The notes beneath the pieces are model-generated. The model did no database searches, had not been told where the DNA came from, and worked only from the letters and a program-made list of their open reading frames with translations. Both the position numbers and the translations under genes were made by a program. A stretch of 64,000 nt of DNA from Candidatus Zixiibacteriota bacterium (lineage in GTDB: Bacteria > Zixibacteria > MSB-5A5 > GN15 > JAAZOE01): the NCBI GenBank assembly GCA_043819555.1, contig JBDREQ010000020.1, positions 64,001-128,000 on the forward strand, in the 5' to 3' direction. Shown piece after piece: positions 30,656 through 46,963 of this stretch; the first letter of the stretch is position 1; each line of letters opens with the position of its first letter.

Positions 30656-30787
30656 TTGTACCTCCCGCCTGACCTCAATCGAGATCTCAACGCCCCGATA
30701 ACAGCCCCTTTCTGTTTTCATAAGAATAAAAATAATATATAACAGATTGTCAAGTGAAGAATAGAGAATTCCCATACGTATTATGAT

Positions 30788-32173
30788 TTAATTCTTAAAT
30801 GGCTCTAAATGAAGAGTTATTGATTTCAGCTCGGGTATTTCATCATGTAGTTTTTCCTGGACCCGAATAGAGACAGAGTCGGTTTTGGCCAGAGTCATTT
30901 TGCCATCAAGGCGCATATCGGCCGAAAGCGCCAGTCCGTTTTTGTGAGGCGTCAAGACAATATTATGGCAGTCTTCAACATCCTGAAACGACTCCACTAT
31001 AGATTTAACTCGTCCCGCAACCCAGTCAATGTCGGGAAGCGCCCCTCCGGCCAGAGATGTATCCGATTTATAAGGCTGAGTATAGATTACGACCTTTTTC
31101 AAACCTGTAACGGTTTTATGAAGTTTTTTGGTTATTTCACCGGTCAAATTGTGAGCGTCATTAAGCGTCGTGTCGCCCGGCATTTCAATATGCATAGACA
31201 CAAAATGTCCGCCTTCTTCCTCGCTGATAATGACATGATGATTTGAGAGGCCGAATGATGAGACAATATATTGAATGGCCGATGTGATTTTTTCCGATTC
31301 AGGGGAGATCGGACGGAATGAACAGGTAACATCTACATCTTTCATGGCCAGTCGCACATTTTCATGCAACCTGTCTTTCAATTCGCTTGTACGCGCAAAG
31401 CTTAGGGAACGGTCGACATCCAGAATTAACTCGGCAAATGTCGTCCGGCCATCGCTTCTTAATCGAATAGAATCGACTCCAATAACTTCAGGTTCAGAGG
31501 TCACTATCTTAAAAATTTTCCCTTCCGTATTCACCGGAGCCCGATCCAAAAGGACATCAATTGATTGTTTCCCCAAACGATATATGGCGGTAATAATAAA
31601 CAGGGCCACACCGATAGCGGCGATGGCATCAGCCATGGGCCATCCCAAAGATACAGCCGCCAGACCAAACAAAACTACCATCGAAGAATAAATATCGGTC
31701 GAAAAATTCAGGGCGTCGGCTTCCAGCGCCTGACTTTTGTATTTTTTCGCGACTCGTCTCAAAGCTCTAACCCTGGTTATATCGATTATCATCGCCGCCA
31801 CGATCACAATAAATGCCCATGGTGTCATCTTGATAATTGATTCACCCACAGCCAGTCGCCCGACCGCTTCATGAATTATCCAGATGCAGGTCACAAATAA
31901 TATAATAACCTGGGCCAGCGCGGCCAGCGATTCCACCTTAGTGTGCCCAAAATGATGATGTTGATCAGCCGGCCGATCGGATATCCGCACCGCAAAATAC
32001 GTTATTATTGACCCGCCCATATCAAGAAGTGAATGCAGCGCATCGGTGAGAATAGCCAATGAACCAGTCATAAGGCCAATAATCGATTTACCGACTATCA
32101 TTACAACAGCGGCCAGAATTGAATATAACGCGACCGCCCTCTTTTCATTCTTGGGGCCAGGAAAATTTATCAT
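30788..32173 (-). CDS. Cation diffusion facilitator with three tandem C-terminal dimerisation domains
   Basis: GSLAILTDALHSLLD, PADQHHHFGHTKVESLA, LEADALNFSTD, then three repeats of the ZT_dimer-like alpha/beta unit ending LHLEP; start likely ATG 32173. Confidence 0.9.
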   Translation of the reverse strand: MINFPGPKNEKRAVALYSILAAVVMIVGKSIIGLMTGSLAILTDALHSLLDMGGSIITYFAVRISDRPADQHHHFGHTKVESLAALAQVIILFVTCIWIIHEAVGRLAVGESIIKMTPWAFIVIVAAMIIDITRVRALRRVAKKYKSQALEADALNFSTDIYSSMVVLFGLAAVSLGWPMADAIAAIGVALFIITAIYRLGKQSIDVLLDRAPVNTEGKIFKIVTSEPEVIGVDSIRLRSDGRTTFAELILDVDRSLSFARTSELKDRLHENVRLAMKDVDVTCSFRPISPESEKITSAIQYIVSSFGLSNHHVIISEEEGGHFVSMHIEMPGDTTLNDAHNLTGEITKKLHKTVTGLKKVVIYTQPYKSDTSLAGGALPDIDWVAGRVKSIVESFQDVEDCHNIVLTPHKNGLALSADMRLDGKMTLAKTDSVSIRVQEKLHDEIPELKSITLHLEPFKN

Positions 32174-32318
32174 ACGCCATGAGTCTAACATCTTTATAGC
32201 CAGGACGCAATTATTTATTGCTTGAAGTTTTATTGAACTTTTATTAAAATAAAATAAATTCTTATTCGGCAATTAATATTGTCGAATAATTTCCGACGTT
32301 ATTTTTAGAGGGGGAATT

Positions 32319-32711
32319 ATGAACTCCAAAAAAATCTTAGTTGTAGATGATGAACAAGCAATCAGATTATTAGTTTCGTCGCTTTTGCGCAAATTAGGAC
32401 ACAGCGCCATTATTTCCGAAAACGGTAAACAGGCAGTCGGTATTTATGAGCAATTTTCATCGGAGATAGATATTGCCATAATTGACATGCAAATGCCGGA
32501 AATGAGCGGGCCTGCAACCTATGAACGGCTAAAATCAATTGACCCTGATATCAAAGTTATTTTTTCCAGTGGTCAAATATGTGACCAGATGAATCAATTG
32601 GTCCGCGATTCCGGATGTATCTGTCTTGCAAAACCGTATAAAATGGCACAATTGACCGAGGCATTGGAAGAATTGGGTGCGTTTACAAAAATCGAAGGAA
32701 ATGACGATTGA
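32319..32711 (+). CDS. Single-domain response regulator
   Basis: ILVVDDE, IIDMQMPEMSG, IFSSG, AKPY. Confidence 0.92.
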   Translation: MNSKKILVVDDEQAIRLLVSSLLRKLGHSAIISENGKQAVGIYEQFSSEIDIAIIDMQMPEMSGPATYERLKSIDPDIKVIFSSGQICDQMNQLVRDSGCICLAKPYKMAQLTEALEELGAFTKIEGNDD

Positions 32712-32714
32712 TAT

Positions 32715-34406
32715 TTATATGTTCGAAATCTCGATTTCTTTGTCAGTGATTTTCTGATTAACTGGCAAAGCAATTATGAAATTAGTACCCTGGCCCGGTA
32801 TTGATTCCACCTTAATAGAACCTTTATGTTTATCAATTATCCCCTTACACACAATAAGCCCAATCCCGTGACCCGATTCCTTTGTCGTAAATTTTTCCTT
32901 AAATAATTTACCAATTTTATTTTCCGGAATTCCGCAGCCATAATCCTTTATAGAAATTTGGATAAGATCATTGTTTGGCTTGCTTGTTGAAATTTCAATT
33001 TTCTTAATTTCCGATTCCGATAAAGCATCAGCCGCGTTATTAAGAAAATTGTAGAGAACCTGCTCGAAAAGACTGGCGTCAATTTCAGCCTCCAGAACTT
33101 CCGTATTGGTTTTGATTTCGATGTCGAGATCCCTGAATCTCTTTTGTGGCTGCAAAAATTCCACGATTCTCTCCAGGAGCGAAATTACATCGGTAATCTT
33201 AAAAACAGCAGATTTGGCTGAAGAATGATCCATAAGATTTTTCGTGAACTGACTGATTTTATCAAGATGATTGTTTATAGATTCAGTAAACCTTTCCAAT
33301 CCTTCAGTAATGCCTTTTTGTAAGCGAATATTCATTAGTTGAAAATTAGCCATTACAACCCCGATATAATTATTCAGTTCATGGCCAATTTCAGCAGACA
33401 TTTGACCGCGTGTGGCCATTTTTTCCATCTGAATGGTTTGATCCTGCAAGTATTCAAGATTTTTATAGGCTTCTCGCGCTTCATCCAATAGCTGGAAATT
33501 CTCAAGCGATATCGCCAGCTGGCTGGCAATAAAGGATAGCAGTTGTGTGTCGGTGGATTCATTCTTATTTGCGGCATCATCATTAAATAAGGTAATGAAT
33601 CCCAGGATGTTACCGCCACGACACAGGGGTGCCAAAGTCGTCCCACCTGTTTCAAAGAACTGTTTAGGCAAGAAAGTATCCTGATTATTTTGAAATACTT
33701 CTGTGTCTCCCAAGGGATAATTCTCAATCGAATTAAGGAAAATTGGTTCAGTAAATTGTCGGATATTGCTCATGTCTTCATCGGAACACTCAAAATCAAT
33801 GGTTTCCGTGAACCCGACTTGATTTTCTTCCTGGTGCATAACTGTGATTTGATTGCACTTATTATTAATATAGACTGCGATTCCGAATATGGCCTTGCTT
33901 TGCACCATTGCGAATGATAATGATAGTCCAAGCAATGATGCCAAATCACCAGAAGCGTACATTTGTTTTGATAAATATGCTATTTTATTAAGCTCTTTGG
34001 ATAATGCCGCCGAACTATTCCACTCCATTTTTTGGACCGCCCGGGACATCGCCTGACGAATCTCAGATAATTCAAAAGGTTTCATTATATAATCATAGGC
34101 GCCTTCCTTGATGGCCTGCTTGGCGCTATCAAGATTGGCGTAACCCGTCATAAAAATAACGCCGATAGCAGGATTAAAATGTCGAATCTCACGCGCCAAT
34201 TCAATACCGTTCATATCAGGCATTCGGATATCAGTAAGTAAAAAATCAAATTGCTTATTTTTCGCGAGTTTAATTGCTTCTGATGGCGTTAAGCAAGTAG
34301 TTATTTCATAACCTTCATCGGTCAAAGTATCTTCGATGAGACTGAGAACAATTTGTTCATCGTCTACGACGAGTATACTGGCGATTATGTCAGTATTCTC
34401 ACTCAA
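32715..34406 (-). CDS. Cytoplasmic hybrid kinase REC-GAF-HisKA-HATPase
   Basis: REC (LVVDDE, TDIRMP, MKPF), GAF-like segment ending FIASQLAISLEN, H-box IGHELNN, N-box NFLNNAADA, DYGCG, GHGIGL; no TM. Confidence 0.92.
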   Translation of the reverse strand: MSENTDIIASILVVDDEQIVLSLIEDTLTDEGYEITTCLTPSEAIKLAKNKQFDFLLTDIRMPDMNGIELAREIRHFNPAIGVIFMTGYANLDSAKQAIKEGAYDYIMKPFELSEIRQAMSRAVQKMEWNSSAALSKELNKIAYLSKQMYASGDLASLLGLSLSFAMVQSKAIFGIAVYINNKCNQITVMHQEENQVGFTETIDFECSDEDMSNIRQFTEPIFLNSIENYPLGDTEVFQNNQDTFLPKQFFETGGTTLAPLCRGGNILGFITLFNDDAANKNESTDTQLLSFIASQLAISLENFQLLDEAREAYKNLEYLQDQTIQMEKMATRGQMSAEIGHELNNYIGVVMANFQLMNIRLQKGITEGLERFTESINNHLDKISQFTKNLMDHSSAKSAVFKITDVISLLERIVEFLQPQKRFRDLDIEIKTNTEVLEAEIDASLFEQVLYNFLNNAADALSESEIKKIEISTSKPNNDLIQISIKDYGCGIPENKIGKLFKEKFTTKESGHGIGLIVCKGIIDKHKGSIKVESIPGQGTNFIIALPVNQKITDKEIEISNI

Positions 34407-34809
34407 TTGAGACTCTCCGTACTCGGCAAATTTGAGATATTATCTTCCTGAGTTCATCCAAATCAAAAGGTTTTTGCAGGCAACACAATGCACCTTCCGC
34501 TGTTGCACTGGCGGCCAATTTATCAGGAAAACTATCGGTCAAAACAATCTTTGAATGAGGCTTTATGGCCATGAGTTCTCGCACTACTTCCAATCCATTT
34601 TTGAGAGGCATATGCACATCAGAAATAATTGCATTATAATCCTGAGCTATGGCTTGATTCAATCCGATCTCCCCGTTTTCCGCCGTATCGACCTGATATC
34701 CATCATCGGACAATATATCTAAAAGAAGATTTCTCATTATCGGTGAATCATCAATAACAAGAATTCTTAAGTTCTTAAAACCGGTCAAATTGTCCTCTTG
34801 CTTACCCAT
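34399..34809 (-). CDS. Single-domain response regulator
   Basis: ILVIDDS, SDVHMPLKNG, QKPF; start likely ATG 34809, 2 nt after the upstream stop. Confidence 0.9.
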   Translation of the reverse strand: MGKQEDNLTGFKNLRILVIDDSPIMRNLLLDILSDDGYQVDTAENGEIGLNQAIAQDYNAIISDVHMPLKNGLEVVRELMAIKPHSKIVLTDSFPDKLAASATAEGALCCLQKPFDLDELRKIISQICRVRRVSIE

Positions 34810-34811
34810 AT

Positions 34812-35174
34812 TTAACTTTCGAAACATTTTCTCACTTCATCACGCAACTGAACGATCGTAAAAGGTTTCGCCAGAAAACCGATAGCTCCCAGACGAACGC
34901 ATTCACTGGCAATATTCAATGATGTATAACCGGTTATCACCATAACCGGTAATTCTGAATTAAACTCTTTCGCATACTTTATGACTTCTTCACCGCCCTT
35001 TTTGGGCATCTTGATGTCGGTAATTATCAAATCAGGATTGAATTGAGGAATTTTGTCAATGGCATCTTGTCCATCAATTGCCTGACAAATACTATAATCC
35101 TCAAGCACTTCGGCAACGAATTCGCGAATTATTTCTTCATCATCTACAATAAGAATTCGGGCTGTTTGATTCAT
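34812..35174 (-). CDS. Single-domain response regulator
   Basis: ILIVDDE, TDIKMP, VITGY, AKPF. Confidence 0.92.
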   Translation of the reverse strand: MNQTARILIVDDEEIIREFVAEVLEDYSICQAIDGQDAIDKIPQFNPDLIITDIKMPKKGGEEVIKYAKEFNSELPVMVITGYTSLNIASECVRLGAIGFLAKPFTIVQLRDEVRKCFES

Positions 35175-35179
35175 GAATT

Positions 35180-36841
35180 TTAACTTTCTTTGTAGTCTTT
35201 TTTCAAGTCATTTATATCTATATCGGAATCCGGCACTTTTTTCTCAAGTGGCAGAATGATAGTAAAAGTTGTCCCGCAATCCTCAATCGATTCGACATTT
35301 ATCTCTCCACCATGCTCATGAATAATCCCGTAACTTACTGATAATCCCAATCCGGTACCCTGTCCGATGGACTTTGTTGTGAAGAACGGTTCGAATATAT
35401 TTTTCTGTATTTCAGTCGGGATGCCGATTCCGTCATCGGCAATGCTTATTTCTACCGCCCCTAAGAACTCTCCCAGGCCGGGCGAATGGCGGGAAGTAAT
35501 CAAAAGATTGCCTCCATTTTCCATAGCATGGAGGGCATTAATAATGATATTTGTAAAGACTTGCTGAAGCATTGCTGTATTACCCATGATAGCTGGAATA
35601 TTATCGGACAGGTCCGTCGCCAAATTTATTTTGTGCATTGAAAGTTGATGTTCAATGAGAGTGATAGTTTCCAGCAAAGTACTATTGATATCGACTTCGG
35701 ATTTTTCAATTTTCGAGGTTGATCGTGAAAACTTCAACAAATTCTGAACAATTTTCTTGCACCGCCTTGTTTGAATCTCAATATCTCGCAGATGCTTCTT
35801 GTATGATTCAAAATCTTTTTCTGTGATTTCAGAAAATGGCTTACGGTTCATTTTTTCCAAAGTATATTGACTGTAACCGAGAATCCCACCCAGGGGATTA
35901 TTTAATTCGTGGGCCACGCCCGCCGAAAGCTGACCAATGGCTGCCATTTTTTCGGTTTGGATAAGTTGCGATTGGGCCTTTTCCAGTTCATGCGTTCTTT
36001 CTATTATTTTTTCTTCCAAAGTGCGGTTATATTCTTCAATTTCCCATCGGGAGTCTTTTAGCGACTCGACCATTAAATCAAATGATGTCGCCAACTGGCC
36101 GATTTCATCAAATCGTTTAATTCCTGTCGTTAATGATAAATCGCCCTGAGCGATTTTTTCAGCAGCCGTGGCTAACTGCTCGATCGGTTTGGTAATTAAA
36201 TTTACAAACCCAAAAGTGAGCAGTATCGTCGCCGAAATCACCAGAAGAATGATTATGATTGCGCCGCGTACATTATTATCCGCCTCGGCCATTGTATTGG
36301 AAACAGATATCCCCAATCGAACATTACCGATTACCTCAGTGATTACATGACCTCGGGTTTTGCCTATATCGCCCAGGATTTCGCGTGAAACAATACTGTG
36401 AGTTGTCACAACCGCATGACATAATTCGTAATAATAATCCTCGACATTCTTATGAAATAATTTTCTGATTGTAATTGAATCTTCTTGATTTAAAATAGGA
36501 GGATTGGCAGGTATCTCTATGTCCAATTTTGACTTCTGGGCCAGGATGTCGCCGTCAAGATTCTGTATGACAATATAAGTAATATCCTGTTCTTTGACAG
36601 TCGCATCGATAAGCTCCATCAATACCATTTCGTTTTCGATAAACGTACCGTATTCGCAGTTGGCCGCCAAAACTTCGATCAGGGCTGAACCTTTATCGAT
36701 CAATCCCTCTTCGGTTGACCGAATTTGGGTCGAAATTAAGTAATAAGATACAGAAAAACCGCTGGCAATAATAAGAAGCGAAAACGTCAGGATAAATTTC
36801 ACCCGCAAGGAAAGAATTTTGAATTTGCCCAGGAGACTCAT
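35180..36841 (-). CDS. Membrane sensor histidine kinase (TM-periplasmic-TM-HAMP-HisKA-HATPase)
   Basis: Two TMs, HAMP (TKPIEQL...DEIGQLATSF), EKMAAIGQLSAGVAHELNNPL, FEPFFTTK, GTGLGLS. Confidence 0.95.
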   Translation of the reverse strand: MSLLGKFKILSLRVKFILTFSLLIIASGFSVSYYLISTQIRSTEEGLIDKGSALIEVLAANCEYGTFIENEMVLMELIDATVKEQDITYIVIQNLDGDILAQKSKLDIEIPANPPILNQEDSITIRKLFHKNVEDYYYELCHAVVTTHSIVSREILGDIGKTRGHVITEVIGNVRLGISVSNTMAEADNNVRGAIIIILLVISATILLTFGFVNLITKPIEQLATAAEKIAQGDLSLTTGIKRFDEIGQLATSFDLMVESLKDSRWEIEEYNRTLEEKIIERTHELEKAQSQLIQTEKMAAIGQLSAGVAHELNNPLGGILGYSQYTLEKMNRKPFSEITEKDFESYKKHLRDIEIQTRRCKKIVQNLLKFSRSTSKIEKSEVDINSTLLETITLIEHQLSMHKINLATDLSDNIPAIMGNTAMLQQVFTNIIINALHAMENGGNLLITSRHSPGLGEFLGAVEISIADDGIGIPTEIQKNIFEPFFTTKSIGQGTGLGLSVSYGIIHEHGGEINVESIEDCGTTFTIILPLEKKVPDSDIDINDLKKDYKES

Positions 36842-37833
36842 TTTATAACCTCCTTGGCAATCGCCAGCAATTCCTCGGGAATCTGAATACTAATTAGCCT
36901 GGCAGTTTTTTCATTATACTTGAAGTAAATTATACCAGCCCCGGGCGTTAGTACGGGAATTTCCGAGGGGTGTTTTCCTTTCAATACTTGTATGGTTATT
37001 TCACCAGCCTGACGGCCAATATCCTTAAAATCAAAATCAAGGGTAAATAGTCCGCCGGCCTCAACCAGAGCCTGAGAAAATCCCATTAGTGGAATTCTAT
37101 GACGCAGGGTCTGGAGAATTATATGCTGAGTTGATTGTGGGGTAAATATTTTTTGATCGGCTACCGTCCAAAAAGCGTCAACAATGGTGCACAAAGAATC
37201 CAATACTTTGGGAATCTCTCGTTCCGATTCTATCTTTGAGGCAATTAACTCAATGCCTAATTGCTTGGCTGCGATTTGTGCCGGGTGTATCAGGTTCTCA
37301 GTTTCATCCGAGTAAATAACGCCCATTTTTTTAATGTGCCCAACAACTTTTTGATAATACTTAAATTGTATGTTAGGCGGCACATCAAGAGCGGCGCCGC
37401 TTATATTCCCTCCCGGGTAATTCATCGATGAAACAAAACCCGATGCCGAAGGATTTATAACGGTCGCGAATATAATGGGTTTATTGGGGAAAAACCTGGA
37501 TGCTGTCAATGTTGCGAATGATCCTATGGTGATTAATATATCCGGATCAAACGACGCAATCTCATTCATCAATCCCGCATCCGCGGACTGCTCGCCGGTA
37601 AGAAGCGTATTTTTGTATAAAACTTCAAATTCCGAACTGTCCAGGGATTTTTTTAAGCCTCGAATAGTTCTTTGTGTAGAGGGGTCTTCATCAATGCTGA
37701 TAATGGCAACTTTTTTTGCATTGGATGCAAAGATCGAATCTGTGCAAATCCCCGGCAACAAAAGAACCAATAGGACATAAAGCGCTGCCGGTCCAACGGT
37801 AAATTGCTTTATTACCCGGACAAAAACCTGCAT
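36838..37833 (-). CDS. ABC-type substrate-binding protein (ABC_sub_bind-like), no cognate transporter nearby
   Basis: Signal/TM, PDILITIG, PIIFATV.NP, GGNISG, GVIYS, DIGRQAG, NEKTA..I.I.IP; ATGA overlap with the kinase gene. Confidence 0.85.
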   Translation of the reverse strand: MQVFVRVIKQFTVGPAALYVLLVLLLPGICTDSIFASNAKKVAIISIDEDPSTQRTIRGLKKSLDSSEFEVLYKNTLLTGEQSADAGLMNEIASFDPDILITIGSFATLTASRFFPNKPIIFATVINPSASGFVSSMNYPGGNISGAALDVPPNIQFKYYQKVVGHIKKMGVIYSDETENLIHPAQIAAKQLGIELIASKIESEREIPKVLDSLCTIVDAFWTVADQKIFTPQSTQHIILQTLRHRIPLMGFSQALVEAGGLFTLDFDFKDIGRQAGEITIQVLKGKHPSEIPVLTPGAGIIYFKYNEKTARLISIQIPEELLAIAKEVIK

Positions 37834-37935
37834 AACCGCCTATTATTTTTAATCAAGATGCTAAATTGTTGTATTCCTGCCGGATGAATCTAATAGTCAA
37901 CAGATGTAATACCGGCTGCACCATAACTATTTTGT

Positions 37936-37962
37936 GTATCGGACGCCTTCATAAAATCTTAA
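37936..37962 (-). promoter_or_regulatory. Candidate sigma28 (FliA/WhiG)-type promoter for SBP-kinase operon
   Basis: Minus strand TTAA-N15-TCCGATAC versus consensus TAAA-N15-GCCGATAA. Confidence 0.45.
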
Positions 37963-38073
37963 CCGGGATATACCTGGACCAAATTATCCAACCATTTGAA
38001 TAGCTGTCCTTAAGAAATATTTATAAAGAGGATTAATTAAATCGAAATATTAAAAAATATCAAAAACACGCTC

Positions 38074-38100
38074 TAAAGGAATGAGTGGGATTTCCGATAC
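38074..38100 (+). promoter_or_regulatory. Candidate sigma28 (FliA/WhiG)-type promoter for TonB receptor operon
   Basis: TAAA-N15-TCCGATAC. Confidence 0.5.
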
Positions 38101-38135
38101 CTAAAAAGACATATATATCTAATGCGTAATGAAAA

Positions 38136-40856
38136 ATGTCCAATTATGAATACTTTTTTAAAAAGTATTCATACAAAACGAAGGAGTCGGGCTTGTTGGC
38201 ATTAAACAATGCAGCCAGGCTATTTATCCTGTTCAGTTTTCTTGTGCCACTTTGCGTTTCTACCGCATTTGGGGGTACGACAGGAAAAATAGCTGGAATG
38301 GTGGCTAGTGCGGAAACAGGGGAAGAACTGAGGGGAGCAACTATCCGAGTTCTGGAAACTCAAACGGCAACAATGACTGACCCGGATGGAGAATTTTATA
38401 TCATCAATCTACCGGTTGGTGTTTATACATTGGATATCTCGATAATCGGATATGAATCAGCGATTGTCCGGGAAGTCAGAGTTTTAATGGACCTGACTAC
38501 TCCGGTTGAAATTAACCTAGATGTCAGTCCGGTGGATCTTAACAAATCAGTGACAGTCTATGCTAAACAACCATTAATACAACGCGATAAGACATCATCG
38601 GGGGCGATTGTCACTCGCGATGATATCATGGCTCTTGCTGATGCCAGAGATGTCGGTAGTATTATTTCAAATATGAGCGGTTCTGTTGTCGGTGGCGATG
38701 GCGCGGTGCATGTTCGCGGCGGACGTATGGGGACATTATCATACTTCTTTGACGGATTCTCGGTTCAGGATCCTTTTTTCTCCACCATGGGAATGAGAAT
38801 AGTCCCTGAAGCCCTGGAAGAGCTGTCAATGACTTCAGGCGGCTTGGCCCCTGAATATGGCGAAGCCCTGGCTGGTGTGGTCAACGCCATTACTCGCGAA
38901 GGTACCGATGAATTTCAGGGGCGTCTAAAAGTCTTCGACGGTGCCTCTCACACCTACAATGTTTATACTGGTGAATTCAGTAATCTTAGGCGAATTAATA
39001 ATCATAACATTTCTCTTGATCTTTCAGGACCAATCGCCAGAATTGGCGAACGTAACGCCACCTTTTTCACCTATTTGGAATTTGAGCGCAATGATGGATA
39101 TTTACCTCATAATCGGCACAAATCATATTCCGGAGTCGGTAAAATTGTTTCCTACCTGTCGAATAACACCAAATTGACATTTAACGGCGCCTACCATAGT
39201 TCTGACGAGCAAAGATATAATCACCGGGATAATAACCTTCTGTCTTATGATTTCAATCTTGATGGTTCCGGAAAATATGAGGATAAATCGTACCTATTCG
39301 GTGTTAAATTTGACGTTAACAAATCAGCCAATACAGTGTACTCATTCAAAGTCAATAAATTCAGAACGCAACGAAAATTGGCGCCGGAACATCTTTTTGA
39401 TTTGTATTGGAACCAATGGCCTGGTTATTCTGAAGATGAAAACGGAGTTTATAATGGCACTATTCAGGATTCCAACTATATTCGTTCCCCGGAATACTAT
39501 TACTGGGGTTACACCACAGGTGATGATTTTTATCCGGTCTATATGGAACGATGGTCGGATTATTCAGGCGCGAATTTTTCATTGCTGTCACAGCTTGACA
39601 AATTTCATCAGTTGAAATTTGGATGGGATCTGCGTCATTATGAACTGCATTGGGATACACGCCAATTTTTCAATGAATTACCATACGGTGAAACCTATAC
39701 CGCATTTCCCTGGATCGGTGCGGCTTATCTGCAGGATAAAATCGAACTTAATGACCTGATCGTAAATATTGGCATGAGGTTTGACTATCTTAATTCTGAC
39801 GCCGAATACTGGAATGATCCAATTGAGCATGATTATAAGAAAAACGCAAAAGCAAAATATCAGATTTCACCGCGACTTGGTATTTCACATCCGATCAGCG
39901 AAAATTCGGTATTGCATTTCAATTACGGCTACCTGTTTCAACCCCCTCAGGCCTCGATTATGTACACCAACCTGAAAGGCGAACTCGATAGCGGATTTCC
40001 GCTATTCGGCAATCCTGATTTGGAAGCCGAAAAAAGCATTTACTATGAACTTGGCCTGACTCAGTTGCTGAATAACAATATCAGGATGCAGATTACCACA
40101 TACTATAAAGATATCAGTAATATGGTGGGCGCCCGCGAAGTTGTTGACGGCATCAATAATTATACCGTCTACATCAACTCCGATTACGGTTCAACTAAGG
40201 GCGTTGATCTTATTCTGGAAACGACTAATCAGAAACTGCTCAACTGGTCGCTCAACTACTCATATATGATTGCACGCGGAAACGCCTCCGACCCGGATGA
40301 TTGGTATTATAATTATTACACCATACTCGATTTGGATGATCGGCCTGAAATCCCGACCCGCGAATATCCGTTGGCATTTGACCAACGACACAGCCTGTCA
40401 GCTGTTATTGATTTACAGGTGCCCAGATATGAAAAGCTGCGGGTATTAGGAAAGAAAATGCCGACGGCCTGGGGAATTAACCTCCTGGCACGCTATGGCT
40501 CAGGATTAGCTTATACCAGAACAGATAAGAATGGCCGACCGGTAGGTTCGCTTAATGATGAACGACTGCCTTCAACTCTTAGAATAGATTCGCGCTTTAA
40601 TAAAGATTTCTATTTGGCACAAAACAGCGATAGATACATGACTTTTTATATCGAGGTTGTGAACCTGTTTAACCGGAAAAACGTTCGCCAGGTTTACACT
40701 TCGACCGGAAAACCGGATGACGATGGTTTTGATGTCCTGAATATTTCGAGCGCGACATATGAGGAAGAAGTGCTTTATCATAGTCTTTTGGAAAGAGATC
40801 CCCAAAACTACGAGCCTCCGAGGCAACTCCGGTTTGGCTTGGAGTTTAATTTCTAA
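38136..40856 (+). CDS. TonB-dependent receptor with N-terminal carboxypeptidase-regulatory-like domain
   Basis: GTTGKIAG.V...TGE.L.GA, plug VHVRGGR, GG..PEYG...GVVN..TREG, SPRLGISHPI, GNPDL.AEK, C-terminal RQLRFGLEFNF; probable true start TTG 38193 after AAGGAG. Confidence 0.92.
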   Translation: MSNYEYFFKKYSYKTKESGLLALNNAARLFILFSFLVPLCVSTAFGGTTGKIAGMVASAETGEELRGATIRVLETQTATMTDPDGEFYIINLPVGVYTLDISIIGYESAIVREVRVLMDLTTPVEINLDVSPVDLNKSVTVYAKQPLIQRDKTSSGAIVTRDDIMALADARDVGSIISNMSGSVVGGDGAVHVRGGRMGTLSYFFDGFSVQDPFFSTMGMRIVPEALEELSMTSGGLAPEYGEALAGVVNAITREGTDEFQGRLKVFDGASHTYNVYTGEFSNLRRINNHNISLDLSGPIARIGERNATFFTYLEFERNDGYLPHNRHKSYSGVGKIVSYLSNNTKLTFNGAYHSSDEQRYNHRDNNLLSYDFNLDGSGKYEDKSYLFGVKFDVNKSANTVYSFKVNKFRTQRKLAPEHLFDLYWNQWPGYSEDENGVYNGTIQDSNYIRSPEYYYWGYTTGDDFYPVYMERWSDYSGANFSLLSQLDKFHQLKFGWDLRHYELHWDTRQFFNELPYGETYTAFPWIGAAYLQDKIELNDLIVNIGMRFDYLNSDAEYWNDPIEHDYKKNAKAKYQISPRLGISHPISENSVLHFNYGYLFQPPQASIMYTNLKGELDSGFPLFGNPDLEAEKSIYYELGLTQLLNNNIRMQITTYYKDISNMVGAREVVDGINNYTVYINSDYGSTKGVDLILETTNQKLLNWSLNYSYMIARGNASDPDDWYYNYYTILDLDDRPEIPTREYPLAFDQRHSLSAVIDLQVPRYEKLRVLGKKMPTAWGINLLARYGSGLAYTRTDKNGRPVGSLNDERLPSTLRIDSRFNKDFYLAQNSDRYMTFYIEVVNLFNRKNVRQVYTSTGKPDDDGFDVLNISSATYEEEVLYHSLLERDPQNYEPPRQLRFGLEFNF

Positions 40857-40882
40857 TGGATGAAAATCACGAGGATTTAAAA

Positions 40883-43537
40883 ATGAAAATTGACGTTATA
40901 AAATCTGGTCTATTTGCTCTGCTATTATTGGGTTGGACTTTGTCTCCCATTATTGCGGCGGAGCAGGCGCCGCAGGCGCCACCCTCCAGCGTCATTAATC
41001 AAATCATCCATAATCAGGGGAATATAGGTTTGGCCGTTACAAATTTCGGCTATTTGGGTGATTATTATTGGGCAGGAATACCGTCGGGCAGATGGCCCGC
41101 GAACAGTACACACGATTACCTCGCCCAGATGGTGTTTTGGATAGGCGGCGTTAATGCCGCAGGTGATACGCTCCTGGCAAATACTATGGATGATTTTTAT
41201 CCTATTCTGAATGTCGCATCGGGCAACAATGATTATCGAATTATGGTTTCAAACGACACCACAACTTATAATTATGATGCCTCTGATACAACCGGAGCTG
41301 GAATCGGTTTTCCCGCCCATGGCTGGAGAGTCTGGGATATCACCGCTCAGCAATGGGATTATAATCAAGTTTATAACAGCCTTTCATCGAGTTTTCAGCC
41401 GGGAGGAGCGGTTTCGGTTCAGGAATCAATTTGCCGATATGGCGACGATGCCTCCGGCACGCCCGTCTTGGGTCTTGAAATAACCCAGACAATAAGGCAA
41501 TGGAATTATAAGCATATCGGCGATATGATTATAATTACTCTTGAAATTACCAACGCCAGCACCGAAGATTATCATGATGTCGCTTTTGGACTTTATTGCG
41601 ACTTCGATATTGGCGGACCGGATCCAAATACGGGTGAAAATGGCCGTTTGGGCGATCTGGTTAATCATGATACCGATTTGGATTTGGCATGGACCTTCGA
41701 CGAGGATGGATACGATCCCGGCTGGGGTCCTGGTGTTCGTACCGGATACATGGGAACGACTTTCCTTTCTACACCGGGCGATATCGGTATGACATCCTTT
41801 AGTACCGGACAGTGGGAACTGTTGCCGACAACTGACCGGGCACGGTATCAAATGATTGATGGAACTGAATTCGCTCAATCTCTTCCACCCACCGATCAAT
41901 ATTATGTGCAAGCGATTCGTGGTATGGATCTAGCCGCCGGCGAGTCTATTAGAATTGATTATGCTCTCATTGCCGGTTCCAGCGAAGATAAACTCAAATC
42001 GGTTGTAAATGATGCCAGAAATTTATATGCCAATAATTTTATATCTTCGCGTCCCCCTGATAACGCCTCTGTCCAGTCAACGCCACGCTCTAATAAAATC
42101 GCCATTTCCTGGGATAATACCTCGGAATTATCTGTAGATCCATCGAATAACTCAACAGATTTTCGCGGTTATAAAATATTTCGTTCAACTGACATGGGAA
42201 AAACATGGGGAAATTTGATTGAAAATGTGGATGGTTCCAAAGGCCCGGATTATGTGCCTCTGGCACAATACGAGCGGGACGCCTTTGGCCGTATTCCTCA
42301 TACTTTCATAGATTCAAATTTGACTAATGGAATGGAATATTGGTACGCTGTCATACCATATGACAGTACCGCGCTTGAAATTGATTTCAACTCGGGCAGA
42401 CCTGAAATCGCCAGTTATATCGTCTCTGCTTTTCCACGCGCAGAACCGTTGGGATATCAACATCCGGTTGAGACTATCGAGCATGCTTATTCCGGTAACT
42501 GGAAAGGCGACGAGGATGCCGTATCGCTCTTCGTCATTAATGATGCAGATATTACCGGTGACGATTATCAAATTACTTTCAACGAGGATTGTCTGGATAT
42601 AACCTGGAATCTGATAAATACGACTACTGGAGATACCGTTCTTGGTGACCAAACGCAGACATCGGGTTTGCCAAATTCTTATCCTATTGCTGATGGTCTT
42701 CAAATAATTGTTACAGTCCCCACAGTAGATGAACACTACTTGCCTGAAACGGCAGAACAACTCGAGTTTTCAACGTCAGGAGTAGAGACAATATTGCCGG
42801 ATTTCATCGAGAAATTTTATCCTGAAGATAATTGCTTTGAGCATTTTAGGAATGATATAGAAATCAGGTTTACCGATAATGGTTCATTTGGTTATGATTT
42901 CGGGGCATTGGTCTGGTATGACGCCATTGTTCAAGTACCTCTGCCTTTTGAGGTCTGGGATATAACGAATGAAATTCAACTTGATGTCTGGATCGTTGAT
43001 TGGTCGGAAGACGGTGAATGGACTATCGCCGATTTCGATTGGCTGATCCTGACCAATTATCAATATGATAATGGAAATCTTCAACTCGAAGCTATCCCTG
43101 ATTATTTTACATGGTTGGTGGAACTAAGTGATATCAGCGCTCCCGCTACTGGTGATATTTATTCGATTAGTGGCGTACCGATTGTCTCTTCCGATGATGA
43201 GTTTCTTTTCTCATCTGAAAAAATTATCGCCGGTCAAGTCTCAGCCAATCTCGATAAAATACATACTGTACCCAACCCATATATCGGATATGCCAAATGG
43301 GAAACCGGACGAGGAAATCGGAAAATGCAATTTGTCAACCTCCCCGATATCTGCACTATTCGAGTATACACTTTATCGGGGGAGTTGATTAACACTCTGG
43401 AGCACACCGACGGTTCAGGCGCCCATGACTGGAATATGCTTTCCGAATCGGGACGGAGCATCGCCGCCGGAGTTTATCTATATAATGTTGAAAGTCAATA
43501 CGGAAATTTCAACGGCAAATTTGCCGTTGTCAAATAA
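40883..43537 (+). CDS. Large acidic secreted protein with fibronectin-III-like domain and T9SS/FlgD-Ig-like C-terminal domain
   Basis: Start 40883 (GAGGA RBS; alternative ATG 40856); Sec signal without lipobox; HNQGNIGLAVTNFG..GRWP domain; ISWD..FRGYKIFRS..NGMEYWYAV; tail VPNPY..FVNLP..TIRVYTLSGELI..WN...IAAGVYLY...GKFAVVK. Confidence 0.75.
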   Translation: MKIDVIKSGLFALLLLGWTLSPIIAAEQAPQAPPSSVINQIIHNQGNIGLAVTNFGYLGDYYWAGIPSGRWPANSTHDYLAQMVFWIGGVNAAGDTLLANTMDDFYPILNVASGNNDYRIMVSNDTTTYNYDASDTTGAGIGFPAHGWRVWDITAQQWDYNQVYNSLSSSFQPGGAVSVQESICRYGDDASGTPVLGLEITQTIRQWNYKHIGDMIIITLEITNASTEDYHDVAFGLYCDFDIGGPDPNTGENGRLGDLVNHDTDLDLAWTFDEDGYDPGWGPGVRTGYMGTTFLSTPGDIGMTSFSTGQWELLPTTDRARYQMIDGTEFAQSLPPTDQYYVQAIRGMDLAAGESIRIDYALIAGSSEDKLKSVVNDARNLYANNFISSRPPDNASVQSTPRSNKIAISWDNTSELSVDPSNNSTDFRGYKIFRSTDMGKTWGNLIENVDGSKGPDYVPLAQYERDAFGRIPHTFIDSNLTNGMEYWYAVIPYDSTALEIDFNSGRPEIASYIVSAFPRAEPLGYQHPVETIEHAYSGNWKGDEDAVSLFVINDADITGDDYQITFNEDCLDITWNLINTTTGDTVLGDQTQTSGLPNSYPIADGLQIIVTVPTVDEHYLPETAEQLEFSTSGVETILPDFIEKFYPEDNCFEHFRNDIEIRFTDNGSFGYDFGALVWYDAIVQVPLPFEVWDITNEIQLDVWIVDWSEDGEWTIADFDWLILTNYQYDNGNLQLEAIPDYFTWLVELSDISAPATGDIYSISGVPIVSSDDEFLFSSEKIIAGQVSANLDKIHTVPNPYIGYAKWETGRGNRKMQFVNLPDICTIRVYTLSGELINTLEHTDGSGAHDWNMLSESGRSIAAGVYLYNVESQYGNFNGKFAVVK

Positions 43538-43555
43538 AACGCCTGGGAGAAAGAT

Positions 43556-44551
43556 ATGAAAAAGGTAGTAATACAAATCGCTGTCCTTTTAATTCTGCTG
43601 GGCGGCATGAGCCAGGCCGATCAATTTAGCAAAATCGGATCGGTTGGCGCGCAATTTCTAAAAATCGGAGTCGGCTCCCGGTATCAGGGATTGGGCGAGG
43701 CATCCGTAGCAATCGTCAATGATGCCTACAGCCTTTATTGGAATCCCGCGGGATTGGCTTATATTGAAGGCAGTAACCTGACCTTTACCAATGTCAACTG
43801 GGTAACCGATGTTAATCTCAATTACGTTGCCTTTGGTACCAGGATTGAAGATTTTGGGACTCTGGGCATATCCGCGGCTCTTCTATCAATGGGCGATATG
43901 GAAGTTACGACTATTGATGAGCCCGATGGAACCGGAGACATGTTCACCGCCTCCAGTTTCGCTCTGACCTTTGGCTACGCTCGATTTCTAACGACTCGTT
44001 TAGCCTTTGGAGCTTCATTCAAATATATTTATGAAAAAATATATACTGAATCAGCTGGGGGCATCGCGTTCGATTTCGGCACCCAGCTTCATACCGGTTA
44101 TAAATCACTCCGAATTGGAATGAACATCTCCAATTTAGGACCCAATATGGAGTTTTCTGGTCCGAATCTAAAAGTACCAATTGAAACCCAATCGGCTACT
44201 TCCAGAAACGGCGAAGTTGCGGTCGATTCGTATGACATCCCGCTGACATTCAGACTGGGTTTGGCGTATGATTTAATCAATGATCCCGACAATACCGTCA
44301 CCATGATCGTTGAGGCCAAACATCCCAATGACCTTGAGCAGCAGGCGTCGCTTGGAAGTGAATACAATTACCGGGATCAGTATTTCCTGCGGGCGGGCTA
44401 CAAATTCAATTACAGCGAACAGGGTCTGACTCTTGGCGGCGGCCTCAATGCGCCAATTGGCAGAAACAGTACTTTAGTTGCTGATTATGCCTGGTCTGAT
44501 TTCGGCCGTTTTGATTCTGTTCACCGCTTTTCAATTGGTTTCAAATTCTAA
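43556..44551 (+). CDS. PorV/PorQ (UPF0164)-family outer-membrane beta-barrel
   Basis: AQFLKIGVGSR..GLGEA.VA..NDA.SLYWNPAGL, FDFG, LRAGY, DYAW..FG.F..VHRFSIGFKF. Confidence 0.85.
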   Translation: MKKVVIQIAVLLILLGGMSQADQFSKIGSVGAQFLKIGVGSRYQGLGEASVAIVNDAYSLYWNPAGLAYIEGSNLTFTNVNWVTDVNLNYVAFGTRIEDFGTLGISAALLSMGDMEVTTIDEPDGTGDMFTASSFALTFGYARFLTTRLAFGASFKYIYEKIYTESAGGIAFDFGTQLHTGYKSLRIGMNISNLGPNMEFSGPNLKVPIETQSATSRNGEVAVDSYDIPLTFRLGLAYDLINDPDNTVTMIVEAKHPNDLEQQASLGSEYNYRDQYFLRAGYKFNYSEQGLTLGGGLNAPIGRNSTLVADYAWSDFGRFDSVHRFSIGFKF

Positions 44552-44571
44552 TTACGCTTAGATATATCATT

Positions 44572-44601
44572 AAAACCCCGTCATCTCGGCGGGGTTTTTT
44601 T
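44572..44601 (+). terminator. Intrinsic terminator ending TonB-PorV operon
   Basis: AAAACCCCGTC-ATCTC-GGCGGGGTTTTTTT. Confidence 0.85.
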
Positions 44602-44675
44602 GTGGTATTTTTCTTCTAATGCCGGCTGAAATCATTGCATAATAGTAAATGGGATTTGCATGCTTGTCCATTTAG

Positions 44676-44709
44676 AAAACCGCCGCCTCGCTAGCGCGAG
44701 GCGGCGGTT
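44676..44709 (-). terminator. Terminator of rpmB
   Basis: 14-bp stem AACCGCCGCCTCGC/GCGAGGCGGCGGTT, T-run on minus strand. Confidence 0.75.
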
Positions 44710-44734
44710 CTTATTGACAGGGGGGTTGGTGTTT

Positions 44735-44938
44735 TTATAATTTTTTCTTAACGGTTTTGGTTACTTTTCCAGCCTTGAGACAAGATGTACATACTCTCAT
44801 TTTTTTCGGGACGCCATTAACTTTGGCGTGCACCGTCTGGAGATTCGGGTTCCAGCGCCGTTTAGTACGATTCTGGGCGTGAGAGACCGAATTACCGACT
44901 CCCGGCTTCTTTCCGCATATTTCACAAATTTTCGACAT
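44735..44938 (-). CDS. rpmB: 50S ribosomal protein L28 (Zn-ribbon form)
   Basis: [34 protein letters not shown]...[11 protein letters not shown]. Confidence 0.97.
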
Positions 44939-44970
44939 CAAAAACAACCTTTCTAAGCGTCGAGTGTATC

Positions 44971-44998
44971 ATTTTATACTTAAATCCAAAATTGTCAA
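44971..44998 (-). promoter_or_regulatory. Sigma70-type promoter of rpmB
   Basis: TTGACA-N16-TAAAAT on minus strand, about 30 nt before ATG. Confidence 0.55.
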
Positions 44999-45098
44999 GA
45001 GAAATTTTAAATTTAATGGCTATATCTTTATCGGACTTTGATTCCAAAATCCATACTATCAAGGTAAAAACAACTCCTCTTCAAAATGTACGCTTGTA

Positions 45099-45127
45099 TT
45101 GACGAATAGACCAAATATTGCTATTAT
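45099..45127 (+). promoter_or_regulatory. Sigma70-type promoter of the GTPase gene
   Basis: TTGACG-N17-TATTAT with TG extension; strong GGAGG RBS downstream. Confidence 0.55.
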
Positions 45128-45151
45128 AAGGCGGGAGGAGGAGGCACTATC

Positions 45152-46153
45152 ATGCCGGCCAATCTGCCGCCGCAATATTATGAGCTGGAGCGAGTCTTTA
45201 AGGCCGAACGGGATCCCAGGGAAAAACTGCGTCTGGCTCAGGAGCTTCTGGCGATGATGCCTAAACATAAGGGCACCGATAAGCTGCAGGCTGATCTTAA
45301 ATCCAAAATATCCAAGCTCAAAAAACAACTGATTTCCGGCGGAAACAAAGCCGGAGCGGCCAAATCGACTTCACTTGACCATATTGACAAAGAGGGCGCG
45401 GGACAGGTTGCTCTGATTGGTCCTCCCAACTCCGGCAAATCCTCGTTGGTTGACGCTTTGACCAACGCCCGTCCGATGATTGCCGATTACCCCTACACTA
45501 CTCGCGAACCGGTGGCGGGGATGATGCCATATGAGACAATTCAGATTCAACTGATCGATACGCCTCCGATTTCCCCAGATATGTTTGAACCCTGGATGCT
45601 GGGAATAATCCGCAATGCCGATTTGATTTGCCTGGTTGCCGGAGTCGGCGACGATGGTTTCGAAGAACGGGTGCAGTATGTCTTTGATAAACTCAAAGAG
45701 CGGCGAGTAATCCTGACTCACGCTATCCCAAATCCGGAAGATGTGGACGATCCCAGCCTGGCATATAAACGAACGATAATCGCGGCCCATAAATTTTATG
45801 ACGATGGGGGTGGGAAGCGTTTTAGTAGGTTTACCGAGCTCTATCCCGGATTTTCCGTCATTGGTACCTCGATTCTCGATGAAGAGACGCTCGAGAGATT
45901 CAAAAAGATGATGTTTGATAATTTGAATATCATGCGCGTTTATACCAAAACTATCGGGCATGAACCGGATTTTACAGATCCAATTATAGTTCCACCCGGT
46001 TCGACAGTCGAAGAAGCGGCTTTGATGCTCCATAAAGATTTTGCCTACAAACTGCAGTTCGCCAAAATTTGGGGCTCCGGCAAATACGACGGCCAACGAG
46101 TTCAAAAATCATATGTCCTTCGGGACAAAGACATCATCGAATTTCATATTTAG
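45152..46153 (+). CDS. OBG-family DRG-like GTPase with C-terminal TGS domain
   Basis: MPANLPP..PKHKGTDKL N-terminus, G1 GPPNSGKSS, G2 YPYTT, TGS (RVYTK..P...GSTV...HKDF..AKIWG..GQRV...L.D.DIIEFH). Confidence 0.9.
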   Translation: MPANLPPQYYELERVFKAERDPREKLRLAQELLAMMPKHKGTDKLQADLKSKISKLKKQLISGGNKAGAAKSTSLDHIDKEGAGQVALIGPPNSGKSSLVDALTNARPMIADYPYTTREPVAGMMPYETIQIQLIDTPPISPDMFEPWMLGIIRNADLICLVAGVGDDGFEERVQYVFDKLKERRVILTHAIPNPEDVDDPSLAYKRTIIAAHKFYDDGGGKRFSRFTELYPGFSVIGTSILDEETLERFKKMMFDNLNIMRVYTKTIGHEPDFTDPIIVPPGSTVEEAALMLHKDFAYKLQFAKIWGSGKYDGQRVQKSYVLRDKDIIEFHI

Positions 46154-46200
46154 AAAGTTGGAGCCTGAAATGCTCCAGCCATATCGTATGATAACTATAG

Positions 46201-46241
46201 ATCGTCGCGTCGTTCCGCATGGCGGAACTCCTCGCGATGAC
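46201..46241 (-). repeat. CGTC-type REP-like palindrome
   Basis: Minus strand GTCATCGCGAGGAGTTCCGCCATGCGGAACGACGCGACGAT, nested hairpin. Confidence 0.55.
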
Positions 46242-46547
46242 CGGTAAAGAGAAAAAGCCGAAGTTATCCACATTTTGTTTCATAAAATTCCTTATAATAC
46301 GATGTATTTCTGTTGGTTACAGCAAATTGGCTTTGTTCTGTCATTTTTCAGGCAAAAGCCTGTTTTCAGCTGTCGCGCGGTTGACTTGGTATCGGTTCAC
46401 CGCTTCTCCAAGGAAGCGACAGGACCTGTGCGAAACTTCTAAAATGGGTTTGTTTGCTCAGATTAACGTTTTTGGTCATATCAAATCGGTGTTGATTGTG
46501 GCAAAAGCCACTTATTGGCTGTCGTATAGATAACTTGGATTTTTCCG

Positions 46548-46620
46548 GCAGGGGTCGCTTGCGTGAGACCCGAAGATTCGTCACAACATTTGGGACGGGC
46601 TCGTCGCGACGAGCCCCTAC
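46548..46620. repeat. Inverted doublet of GTAG-type REP-like palindromes
   Basis: GCAG-GGGTCGCTTGCGTGAGACCC on plus strand facing GTAG-GGGCTCGTCGCGACGAGCCC on minus strand. Confidence 0.6.
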
Positions 46621-46741
46621 GATTCCGTATATCTTTTTTTATATAATCCATACTACTAAACGTTGATTGTTTCGGAAACAATGGGGGATTGGTTGGGTAA
46701 TTGTAATTATACGGGTGAGGGATTGTCGGAAAATTGGGGAA

Positions 46742-46767
46742 GGCGACAACTCGAGAGTTGTCGCTAC
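46742..46767 (-). repeat. GTAG-type REP-like palindrome
   Basis: Minus strand GTAGCGACAACTCTCGAGTTGTCGCC. Confidence 0.6.
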
Positions 46768-46917
46768 GTAAAGTAACACACCGCGCCCCTGCGGGTGATG
46801 GCTTTATTGTAATTTGTTTCATTTTACATATGGTGATGATTTCGGAAATAGAGGAAAACAGGGTAGATAAATGCTATTTTTATATACGGAACTCGAAGGT
46901 GGAAATTCTAAATATTA

Positions 46918-46943
46918 GCAGGATCGTGGCGGTCCTGCCCCAC
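46918..46943 (-). repeat. GTGG-type REP-like palindrome
   Basis: Minus strand GTGGG-GCAGGACCGCCACGATCCTGC. Confidence 0.45.
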
Positions 46944-46963
46944 TGGCGCAATAGCAATTTCGC

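Follow-up and report, generated by a model that had tools for sequence, protein, structure and literature searches.

In the polysaccharide utilization loci (PULs) of Bacteroides, SusC import is paired with periplasmic sensing by hybrid two-component systems. In LuxP-LuxQ, TorT-TorS and ChvE-VirA the periplasmic domain of a membrane kinase is the docking site of a soluble periplasmic binding protein that plays no part in transport, and in BtuB-BtuG of Bacteroides a surface-exposed protein sits atop a large barrel. With these systems we compared a locus at positions 32319-44601 of a stretch of 64,000 nucleotides (contig JBDREQ010000020.1, positions 64,001 to 128,000; in the following termed the window) from the genome of a Candidatus Zixiibacteriota bacterium, which the source names of close homologs likewise assign to the Zixibacteria. 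The locus consists of two divergent arms. The transporter arm encodes a TonB-dependent transporter (TBDT), an all-beta protein which we call X and a PorV-like barrel; the sensing arm encodes a periplasmic solute-binding protein (SBP), a membrane histidine kinase and proteins with receiver (REC) domains. The finding that Zixibacteria keep this outer-membrane trio beside an orphan SBP and a kinase relay suggests a single envelope-spanning sensing device.

With the PULs of Bacteroidota the locus shares a TonB importer with a CarboxypepD_reg-like N-terminal domain, an adjacent putative surface capture protein and a periplasm-reading sensor beside the transporter. In contrast to a PUL, the SusC/RagA model TIGR04056 scores only 59.7 bits versus 368 and covers residues 51-170 only, and no SusD is found in the cluster. 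The surface partner is a type IX secretion system (T9SS)-type protein with its own PorV-like barrel and not a lipoprotein, glycoside hydrolases (GH) are missing, the sensor is split into SBP and kinase, and there is no DNA-binding output. A preliminary description of this DNA had called the system unlike Sus/PUL, which was worded too strongly, because PULs already combine import and periplasmic sensing. The SBP-dependent kinases named above resemble the locus in the soluble SBP docking on the periplasmic domain of a kinase, as we propose here, and in the adjacency of the two genes. They differ from it in that here the SBP belongs to PF04392, the kinase is not a hybrid and the pair is fixed beside an outer-membrane cassette. 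FecA-FecR-FecI likewise links a TonB-dependent outer-membrane protein to a signal that crosses the envelope. However, Pfam and NCBIfam scans of the cluster proteins detected neither a signalling N-terminal domain on the TBDT nor an extracytoplasmic function (ECF) sigma factor or an anti-sigma factor, and in our locus the imported ligand would itself serve as the signal, for SBP and kinase to read.

According to passages of PMC10202324, in PorZ-PorQ, PorU-PorV and the type B proteins with PorP/SprF the gene for a protein with a C-terminal sorting domain (CTD) lies beside the gene for a PorV-like barrel, as it does in our locus. In contrast to these cargo-anchor pairs, the CTD encoded in the window stays under the curated cut-off, the pair is always preceded by the TBDT gene, and the carriers are Zixibacteria and not Bacteroidota. 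In the β-barrel assembly machinery (BAM) complex BamA-BamG-BamH, the 14-stranded FadL-like BamG binds a surface protein via its loops and packs against the large barrel, as described in passages of PMC12578637. BamA-BamG-BamH and BtuB-BtuG differ from our locus in protein families and functions, and the likeness comes from genes and single-protein models; BtuB1-BtuG1 (8blw) appeared among the fold matches of the TBDT only as one of many TBDTs. A literature search that covered few subscription journals and no supplements yielded no published description of the cassette or of the whole combination, no publication linking Zixibacteria with type IX secretion, and none linking the family of the SBP with TonB-dependent transport.

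Orthologs of X were sought in 285 Zixibacteria species genomes, the families of which we labelled f1-f20. A full-length ortholog was present in 226 of these genomes and in 102 of 130 genera. From eight families we selected 40 loci, only by the criterion of enough contig on both sides, and compared 20 kb around each X ortholog with the window proteins using tblastn. In all 40 loci the TBDT-X-PorV-like trio directly adjoins the SBP-kinase-REC genes. The order is divergent as in the window in 36 of them; in the four loci of family f14 (4/4) the sensing arm is inverted, so that all genes point in the same direction. In the deep-branching family f20 all five genomes contain one tight co-directional row in the order TBDT, X, PorV-like barrel, SBP, kinase and REC, with identities to the window proteins of 35-44% for the kinase and 23-35% for the rest. 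Taken together, all of the sampled Zixibacteria loci (45 of 45) have the two arms side by side, in three different gene orders (36 divergent, 4 with inverted arm, 5 co-directional), and because of this recurrence the arrangement is far beyond chance. These data support the two arms as a conserved unit, in line with the preliminary description, which would have been in difficulty if the arms never co-occurred. The tight spacing and common direction of both arms in the f20 row also argue against their independent expression in this family.

Only the inner part of the locus is conserved to this degree. The flanking genes, which encode a cation diffusion facilitator (CDF) transporter, an omptin-like protein, a GTPase and the stand-alone receiver REC0 (32319-32711, plus strand, PF00072 with 67.6 bits), are common only within the window's own family. 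REC0 converges on the sensing arm, and a homolog in the same position was found only in three loci of this family (L003, L005 and L006); it is an accessory gene outside the conserved core. The cytoplasmic receiver-kinase hybrid (32715-34406, minus strand; PF00072 109 bits, HATPase_c 84.5 bits, HisKA weak and below cut-off with 18.7 bits), with an N-terminal REC followed by a middle region without a family, HisKA and HATPase_c, is present in 39 of the 40 loci outside f20 and in 0/5 f20 loci. It is missing at locus L013 (genome G235, family f15), and in L017 (G158, f4) it was matched in two pieces comprising residues 11-417 only and is possibly disrupted. Two further stand-alone receivers are encoded on the minus strand of the window. 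REC2 (34399-34827, PF00072 76.6 bits), the best-matching one, is kept in all sampled loci; REC1 (34812-35174, PF00072 90.7 bits) is lacking from the loci sampled in f14, f9 and f10. Six genes make up the invariant core, namely those for the TBDT, X, the PorV-like barrel, the SBP, the kinase and one receiver. The preliminary description had counted nine proteins: all nine genes are indeed present in the window, but REC0 is kept only in part of its family and the f20 form comprises six genes.

Family tallies show X and SBP both near-universal in f1-f5, f9, f10, f14 and f15, and both at zero in f6-f8, f11, f12 and f16-f18. In f13 and f19 only weak X matches (5/9 and 2/3 genomes) and no SBP were detected; the weak matches probably belong to a paralogous cassette. 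About 58 further genomes, for example G141, G146, G142, G172 and G163, contain matches to X and SBP 3-4.5 kb apart on one contig, an approximate count made by eye. In about 17 listed genomes the two matches are on different contigs; nearly all of these are fragmented assemblies (G042 with about 40 contigs) and are uninformative for linkage. The distance matrices of five core proteins correlate with pairwise r values of 0.82-0.95, and 0 of 999 permutations reached the observed value, which fits joint vertical inheritance.

The spacer between the divergent arms measures 302 nt (37834-38135), close to the roughly 300 nt given earlier, and the matching promoter-like motifs which the preliminary description had noticed there were found again. 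The motif of the sensing arm (37931-37964, minus strand) reads GTTAAG (37958-37963)-N15-CCGATA (37937-37942), with the start of CCGATA 109 nt upstream of the SBP start. The motif of the transporter arm (38072-38105, plus strand) reads CTAAAG (38073-38078)-N15-CCGATA (38094-38099), with the start of CCGATA 42 nt upstream of the TBDT start. Each copy reads in the sense of its own arm. A CCGATA in sense orientation precedes the SBP gene by at most 220 nt in 36 of 41 loci and likewise precedes that of the TBDT in 18 of 41, and by our own arithmetic the chance rate of such a CCGATA is about 5% per locus. Alignment of the sites yielded the bipartite element gT(C/T)AAGtTT-N12-CCGATA, in summary form GTNAAG-N15-CCGATA.

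For a scan of the 3.35-Mb genome on both strands we used a matrix based on 38 sites, all from other genomes and none from the window. The two best hits of the whole genome were the two spacer sites, with 27.8 bits on the SBP side and 24.6 bits on the TBDT side; the third hit reached 20.5 bits, and 41 hits exceeded 14 bits. A matrix built from f2 alone (18 sites) was applied to 31 loci of 20 kb from other families, and in 16 of these its top hit preceded SBP or TBDT (f1 5/6, f15 2/2, f4 4/4, f5 2/5, f9 1/3, f10 0/2, f14 0/4 and, with low scores, f20 2/5). A housekeeping promoter was considered and rejected, because genome-wide there are 6 exact copies of T[CT]AAG-N15-CCGATA versus 2-16 at other spacings, so that the pattern is not enriched, and because a canonical TTGACA-N16-TATAAT promoter exists at 44714-44741. 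A sigma-54 type promoter in the spacer was dropped as well, as no GG-N10-GC element was seen by eye. We take the motif to be a dedicated promoter or operator common to both arms. The sharing of one locus-specific promoter-like motif makes it probable that the two arms are switched together. Weaker hits of 15-19 bits upstream of a PilB-like gene (C73:166670, minus strand), a PilT-like gene (C20:52326, plus strand) and the SprA gene (C33:6341, plus strand; C denotes contigs of the genome) are in the noise range of the 41 hits above 14 bits and are at most a lead to a possible regulon.

The SBP (36838-37833, minus strand) matches PF04392 with 129.3 bits (cut-off 25.9) and is encoded by a single-copy gene. 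The stop codon of this gene and the start of that for the kinase overlap in the window and in 36 of 41 loci (32 with an overlap of 4 nt, 4 with one of 1 nt), and the gene is predicted to be translationally coupled to the kinase gene. A permease of the PF02653 type, the only permease family searched, gave 0 matches in the 97%-complete genome; the same search was positive in 12 of 14 control genomes. The closest solved relatives of the SBP are 3lft (E 8.6e-24) and 3lkv. The nearest NCBIfam model is the TrpX equivalog NF041285, for which the SBP reaches 125.3 bits and stays far below the cut-off of 390. Table 1 of PMC10443332 gives L-Trp, L-Tyr and L-Phe as ligands of three solved PF04392 proteins. 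The literature search with its few subscription journals did not reveal a published sensor role for PF04392 proteins.

The kinase (35180-36841, minus strand) has the architecture of a transmembrane segment, a periplasmic domain of about 150 amino acids, a second transmembrane segment, HAMP (47.4 bits), HisKA (47.1 bits) and HATPase_c (87.5 bits); a match to sCache_4 is borderline (22.2 bits, cut-off 22.1). Residues 11-535 align to the BarA model with a score below its cut-off. Residues 36-331 of the SBP and 38-190 of the kinase were submitted to complex prediction, with an alignment of 34 orthologs for either partner. The prediction has weak support, with a median score of 0.57 and 0.00 for the best control; the runs agree in at least 95% of the contacts and the partner has a predicted local distance difference test score (pLDDT) of at least 75. 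In the calibration 116 of 157 solved complexes and 2 of 215 mismatches attained the mark, but the range up to 0.60 contains only 18 of the 157 solved complexes and both mismatches. The lack of a PF02653 match, the overlap of the SBP and kinase genes, the single gene copy and the weakly predicted complex support the view that the SBP looks like a sensor component and not like part of a transporter. The earlier statement that the ligand is read as a signal rather than consumed is thus supported as far as the SBP is concerned, given the missing PF02653 permease and the overlap in 36 of 41 loci; entry through the TBDT and capture by X, its other half, we infer.

The TBDT (38136-40856, plus strand, 906 amino acids) has a CarboxypepD_reg-like N-terminal domain (PF13715, 55.3 bits). 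Its Plug domain reaches 22.0 bits (cut-off 23.9) and PF00593 gave no hit, whereas a full-length paralog on contig C71, which is 27% identical, reaches 91 bits for PF00593 and 36 bits for Plug. The AlphaFold2 (AF2) model (pLDDT 81.2, predicted TM-score 0.81) matched, among others, PhuR, PqqU, FepA, PfeA and FhuA in Foldseek with E values of 7.7e-30 to 1e-22 and TM(target) values of 0.62-0.83. By this model the protein has the fold of a TonB-dependent transporter, a predicted 22-strand barrel with an N-terminal plug. A strand resembling a TonB box, judged by eye only, is located between the N-terminal domain and the plug. The genome contains seven TonB_C matches, six of them over the cut-off. 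Three tandem TonB_C-domain matches were noticed at C71:28244-29233, on the same contig as one of the paralogous cassettes described below.

X (40856-43537, plus strand, 893 amino acids) belongs to no Pfam family, and its AF2 model (pLDDT 86) is all-beta. Residues ~40-400 form a predicted super-sandwich that resembles the N-terminal domains of GH15, GH94 and GH116 enzymes, with 230-270 aligned residues at an rmsd of 3-4 Å and a VIA Z of 18-20; X lacks their catalytic helical barrel. Fibronectin type III-like and other beta domains follow, and then a T9SS-like sorting domain at ~800-893. The match to the sorting-domain model TIGR04183 reaches 18.8 bits in the window (cut-off 23). Among 20 members of the X family the CTD was recognized at E<=0.1 by TIGR04183 in 19, by the PorU tail in 18, by PorZ in 13 and by the type B model PF13585 in 8. 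PorZ (5m11) was the top Foldseek hit of the whole model and was not used as a fold assignment, with TM values of 0.11-0.13 over part of the chain only. The N-terminal domain of X (window 40973-42055) is without Pfam family and is a candidate for a new domain family, with Asp, Trp and Gly invariant at many positions. Protein atlas structures (TM 0.77-0.81) show it again in clusters of T9SS cargo, all unnamed, from Ignavibacteriota, WOR-3, Fidelibacterota and Bacteroidota.

The third protein of the arm (43556-44551, plus strand) is a FadL-like barrel of the PorV/PorQ family NF033709 (231.4 bits, cut-off 90). It stays below the cut-offs of both the PorV model NF033710 (103 versus 250 bits) and the PorQ model NF033711 (92.7 versus 220 bits). 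Its gene follows X after 10-22 nt in most loci. The genome contains a T9SS, with SprA (602 bits, C33) and PorU (623 bits, C25:4496-7672) both over their cut-offs and with tblastn hits of the PorV-like protein just downstream of PorU (C25:7828-10380). GldM (TIGR03517) was not matched in the genome, and since the control genomes were equally silent this has no bearing either way. PorU and PorZ are reported to retain their CTD on PorV and PorQ, and type B cargo genes to cluster with their cognate PorP/SprF barrels, again in passages of PMC10202324. By analogy, the PorV-like barrel is likely the cognate anchor of X. Since the tail of X resembles the CTDs of PorU and PorZ and a T9SS is present, X and its own PorV-like barrel are a known kind of pair; the TBDT that precedes the pair is the constant feature in the present case.

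The remaining features of the locus are as follows. The transporter arm is closed by a strong intrinsic terminator (44572-44598, plus strand) with an 11-bp stem including 6 G-C pairs, a 5-nt loop and a T-run, as the preliminary description had stated. Hydropathy analysis showed one N-terminal hydrophobic segment each in SBP, TBDT, X and the PorV-like protein, two in the kinase (residues ~7-36 and ~189-218) and none in the receivers and the hybrid. This fits the proposed compartment of every component and bears out the earlier notion of a system with parts in every compartment. The scans of the cluster proteins also detected neither a permease nor a catabolic enzyme within the block, again as stated before; the CDF transporter next to it is conserved only in the family. 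Rfam and tRNA scans of 31000-47000 gave no match.

The trio is not confined to this locus. In the same genome, C71:4085-11537 (L001) encodes a TBDT of 1013 amino acids, an X-like protein of 1128 amino acids and a PorV-like protein, with a MacB/HlyD efflux pair upstream and neither SBP nor kinase beside it. At C24:17103-23707 (L002:8103-14707) a TBDT of 1150 amino acids and a PorV-like protein are followed by a 710-amino-acid protein that has no match to X and no Pfam family; SBP and kinase are not beside this site either. A search of 1.84 billion representative proteins with the X-family profile yielded 22,803 matches at E<=1e-3, of which 3,214 reached E<=1e-30. Among them are many of full length (930-1150 amino acids), and named members come from Ignavibacteriota and Neomarinimicrobiota. 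From a scan of species genomes with non-Zixibacteria members of the X family we obtained 80 loci outside the Zixibacteria, several of which are short fragments. They come from Ignavibacteriota, metagenome-assembled genomes of Bacteroidota, Melioribacter, Kryptoniota, Cloacimonadota and Neomarinimicrobiota. By tblastn 71 of them contain the TBDT, just upstream of X where readable, and 65 the PorV-like barrel just downstream; the SBP was found in none, while 2 have a weak, distant match to the kinase and 1 has a match to the hybrid. The TBDT-X-PorV-like trio is therefore an independent cassette that is widespread in the Fibrobacterota-Chlorobiota-Bacteroidota (FCB) group, and the sensing arm is a Zixibacteria-specific addition to one ortholog of this general cassette.

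The explanation which we prefer, with a probability of about 0.5, is that the two units form one co-inherited envelope module of Zixibacteria, in which X captures, the TBDT imports and the SBP switches the kinase. The first unit would be the FCB-wide cassette of TBDT, surface-exposed and T9SS-sorted X and the PorV/PorQ-like barrel, which probably holds X by its retained CTD. The second unit would be the signalling arm, with an SBP for which no ABC permease was detected and whose probable docking site is the periplasmic domain of the BarA-like kinase. A substrate captured by X at the surface would be imported, entirely or as a fragment, by the TBDT and bound in the periplasm by the SBP, which then would switch the kinase. 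The kinase may feed the receiver-only proteins and, in most lineages, the second cytoplasmic receiver-kinase, and the relay would act through a factor encoded outside the cluster. This ligand path is proposed because of the known roles of the parts and their conserved co-location; in the same way we infer the identity of the ligand, the contacts between X and barrel and between SBP and kinase, and the output.

Several observations weigh against such a module. The PF04392 ligands given in Table 1 of PMC10443332 are aromatic amino acids without an obvious need for a TBDT, the fold of the N-terminal domain of X is known from glycan enzymes, and these hints diverge. By the calibration of the prediction tool a complex with support as weak as that of SBP and kinase is more often wrong than right unless it is likely beforehand. 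The receivers of the cluster are without output domain, and the scans revealed no DNA-binding output or regulator encoded in the block. The f14 loci lack the shared motif, and in f9, f10 and f20 it is weak. The correlations of the distance matrices are expected of any vertically inherited genes, and the 40 loci were anchored on X and selected for long contigs. Furthermore, the two related sites C71 and C24 lie in the same genome without SBP or kinase. Since neither these two sites nor any of the 80 outside loci contains the SBP, the cassette apparently works without SBP and kinase in other phyla, and the sensing arm is an add-on and not intrinsic.

The main rival explanation is a local regulator only. 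In this case a small solute in the periplasm, whatever its way of entry, is sensed by the relay, which does no more than regulate the expression of the adjacent cassette; the TBDT is the regulated target and not the gate. A regulator beside the operon it regulates is the commonest cause of such linkage, the motif common to both arms is what an autoregulated regulon would show, the known PF04392 ligands are small amino acids as far as Table 1 of PMC10443332 goes, and the cassette functions elsewhere without a sensor arm. Against this explanation, a DNA-binding output is not encoded in the cluster. The adjacency was kept through three rearrangements and the arms are fused in f20, which fits either reading, although it suggests stoichiometric co-production. 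The local regulator differs from the sensing module only in the route of the ligand, and the present data do not separate the two; we regard it as possible, with odds clearly below even. Chance or merely inherited adjacency of two unrelated operons, in contrast, is highly improbable. All sampled genomes belong to one phylum and shared ancestry inflates the counts, but the adjacency survived an inversion in f14 and a fusion in f20 while all flanking genes changed, and the two units are lost or kept together by family.

Two further explanations assign the parts other functions. The barrel of the TonB type together with X and the PorV-like protein could place or move X on the cell surface, for adhesion or for export, and the relay would report the state of the envelope or surface. 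The Oar transporter of Myxococcus is a precedent for export. X with its T9SS-like CTD and cognate PorV-like barrel looks like an anchored T9SS cargo, and as a single-copy core gene in 226 of 285 genomes it would suit a housekeeping surface function. However, the large barrel has an ordinary TBDT fold with plug region and is closest to importers, TonB genes are present in the genome and no export-specific feature was found, so that we consider a display or export unit unlikely. Less probable still is ordinary nutrient uptake, in which the SBP hands the substrate to an unrecognised inner-membrane permease encoded elsewhere and the kinase is a side branch. PF04392 proteins are usually components of ABC transporters and the nearest model is that of the TrpX SBP (125.3 bits). 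This score is far under the cut-off of 390, the one permease family that was searched, PF02653, is missing from the 97%-complete genome, and in 36 of 41 loci the genes for SBP and kinase are coupled. Beyond the sensing module itself, a more far-reaching and rather speculative extension is conceivable. The trio would be an undescribed FCB-wide alternative to SusC/SusD, in which the T9SS delivers the capture protein X and a dedicated PorV-like barrel keeps it on the transporter. In Zixibacteria one ortholog of the trio would have become the obligatory entry gate of a trans-envelope sensor, with no access to the kinase-switching orphan SBP except for imports of this TBDT, the receivers of which sensor act by protein contact, for example on envelope motors, and not on DNA.

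Zixibacteria are uncultured, and their sensing and feeding are almost undescribed. Nearly all members of the main orders keep this module of six to eight genes, a strong candidate for a core function in their physiology, and it offers testable parts, namely one SBP for ligand screens, one kinase and a defined promoter motif. The cassette may be the way in which FCB bacteria without SusD couple surface capture to TonB-dependent import. Some of its carriers, for example Melioribacter, are cultured and thus open to direct study. The value of the locus lies in the phylum-wide conservation and in the undescribed, unannotated cassette that extends across the FCB group.

Some features in the vicinity were recorded as well. 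The canonical promoter downstream of the terminator is a perfect match (12/12) to TTGACA-N16-TATAAT on the plus strand and precedes a GTPase/TGS gene (45152-46153); it shows that the genome has canonical sites of the sigma-70 type, from which the motif of the cluster differs. On the other side of the locus, at 29642-32272 on the minus strand, the gene for the omptin-like outer-membrane protein (PF01278, 51 bits) adjoins that for the CDF transporter of 494 amino acids (30788-32272), which has three ZT_dimer domain matches; both genes are kept only in the window's own family. The minus strand at 47018-49669 encodes a protein of 883 amino acids that combines a BamB/PQQ-like beta-propeller with DUF7451 and a C-terminal type I dockerin, a combination unusual for the phylum.

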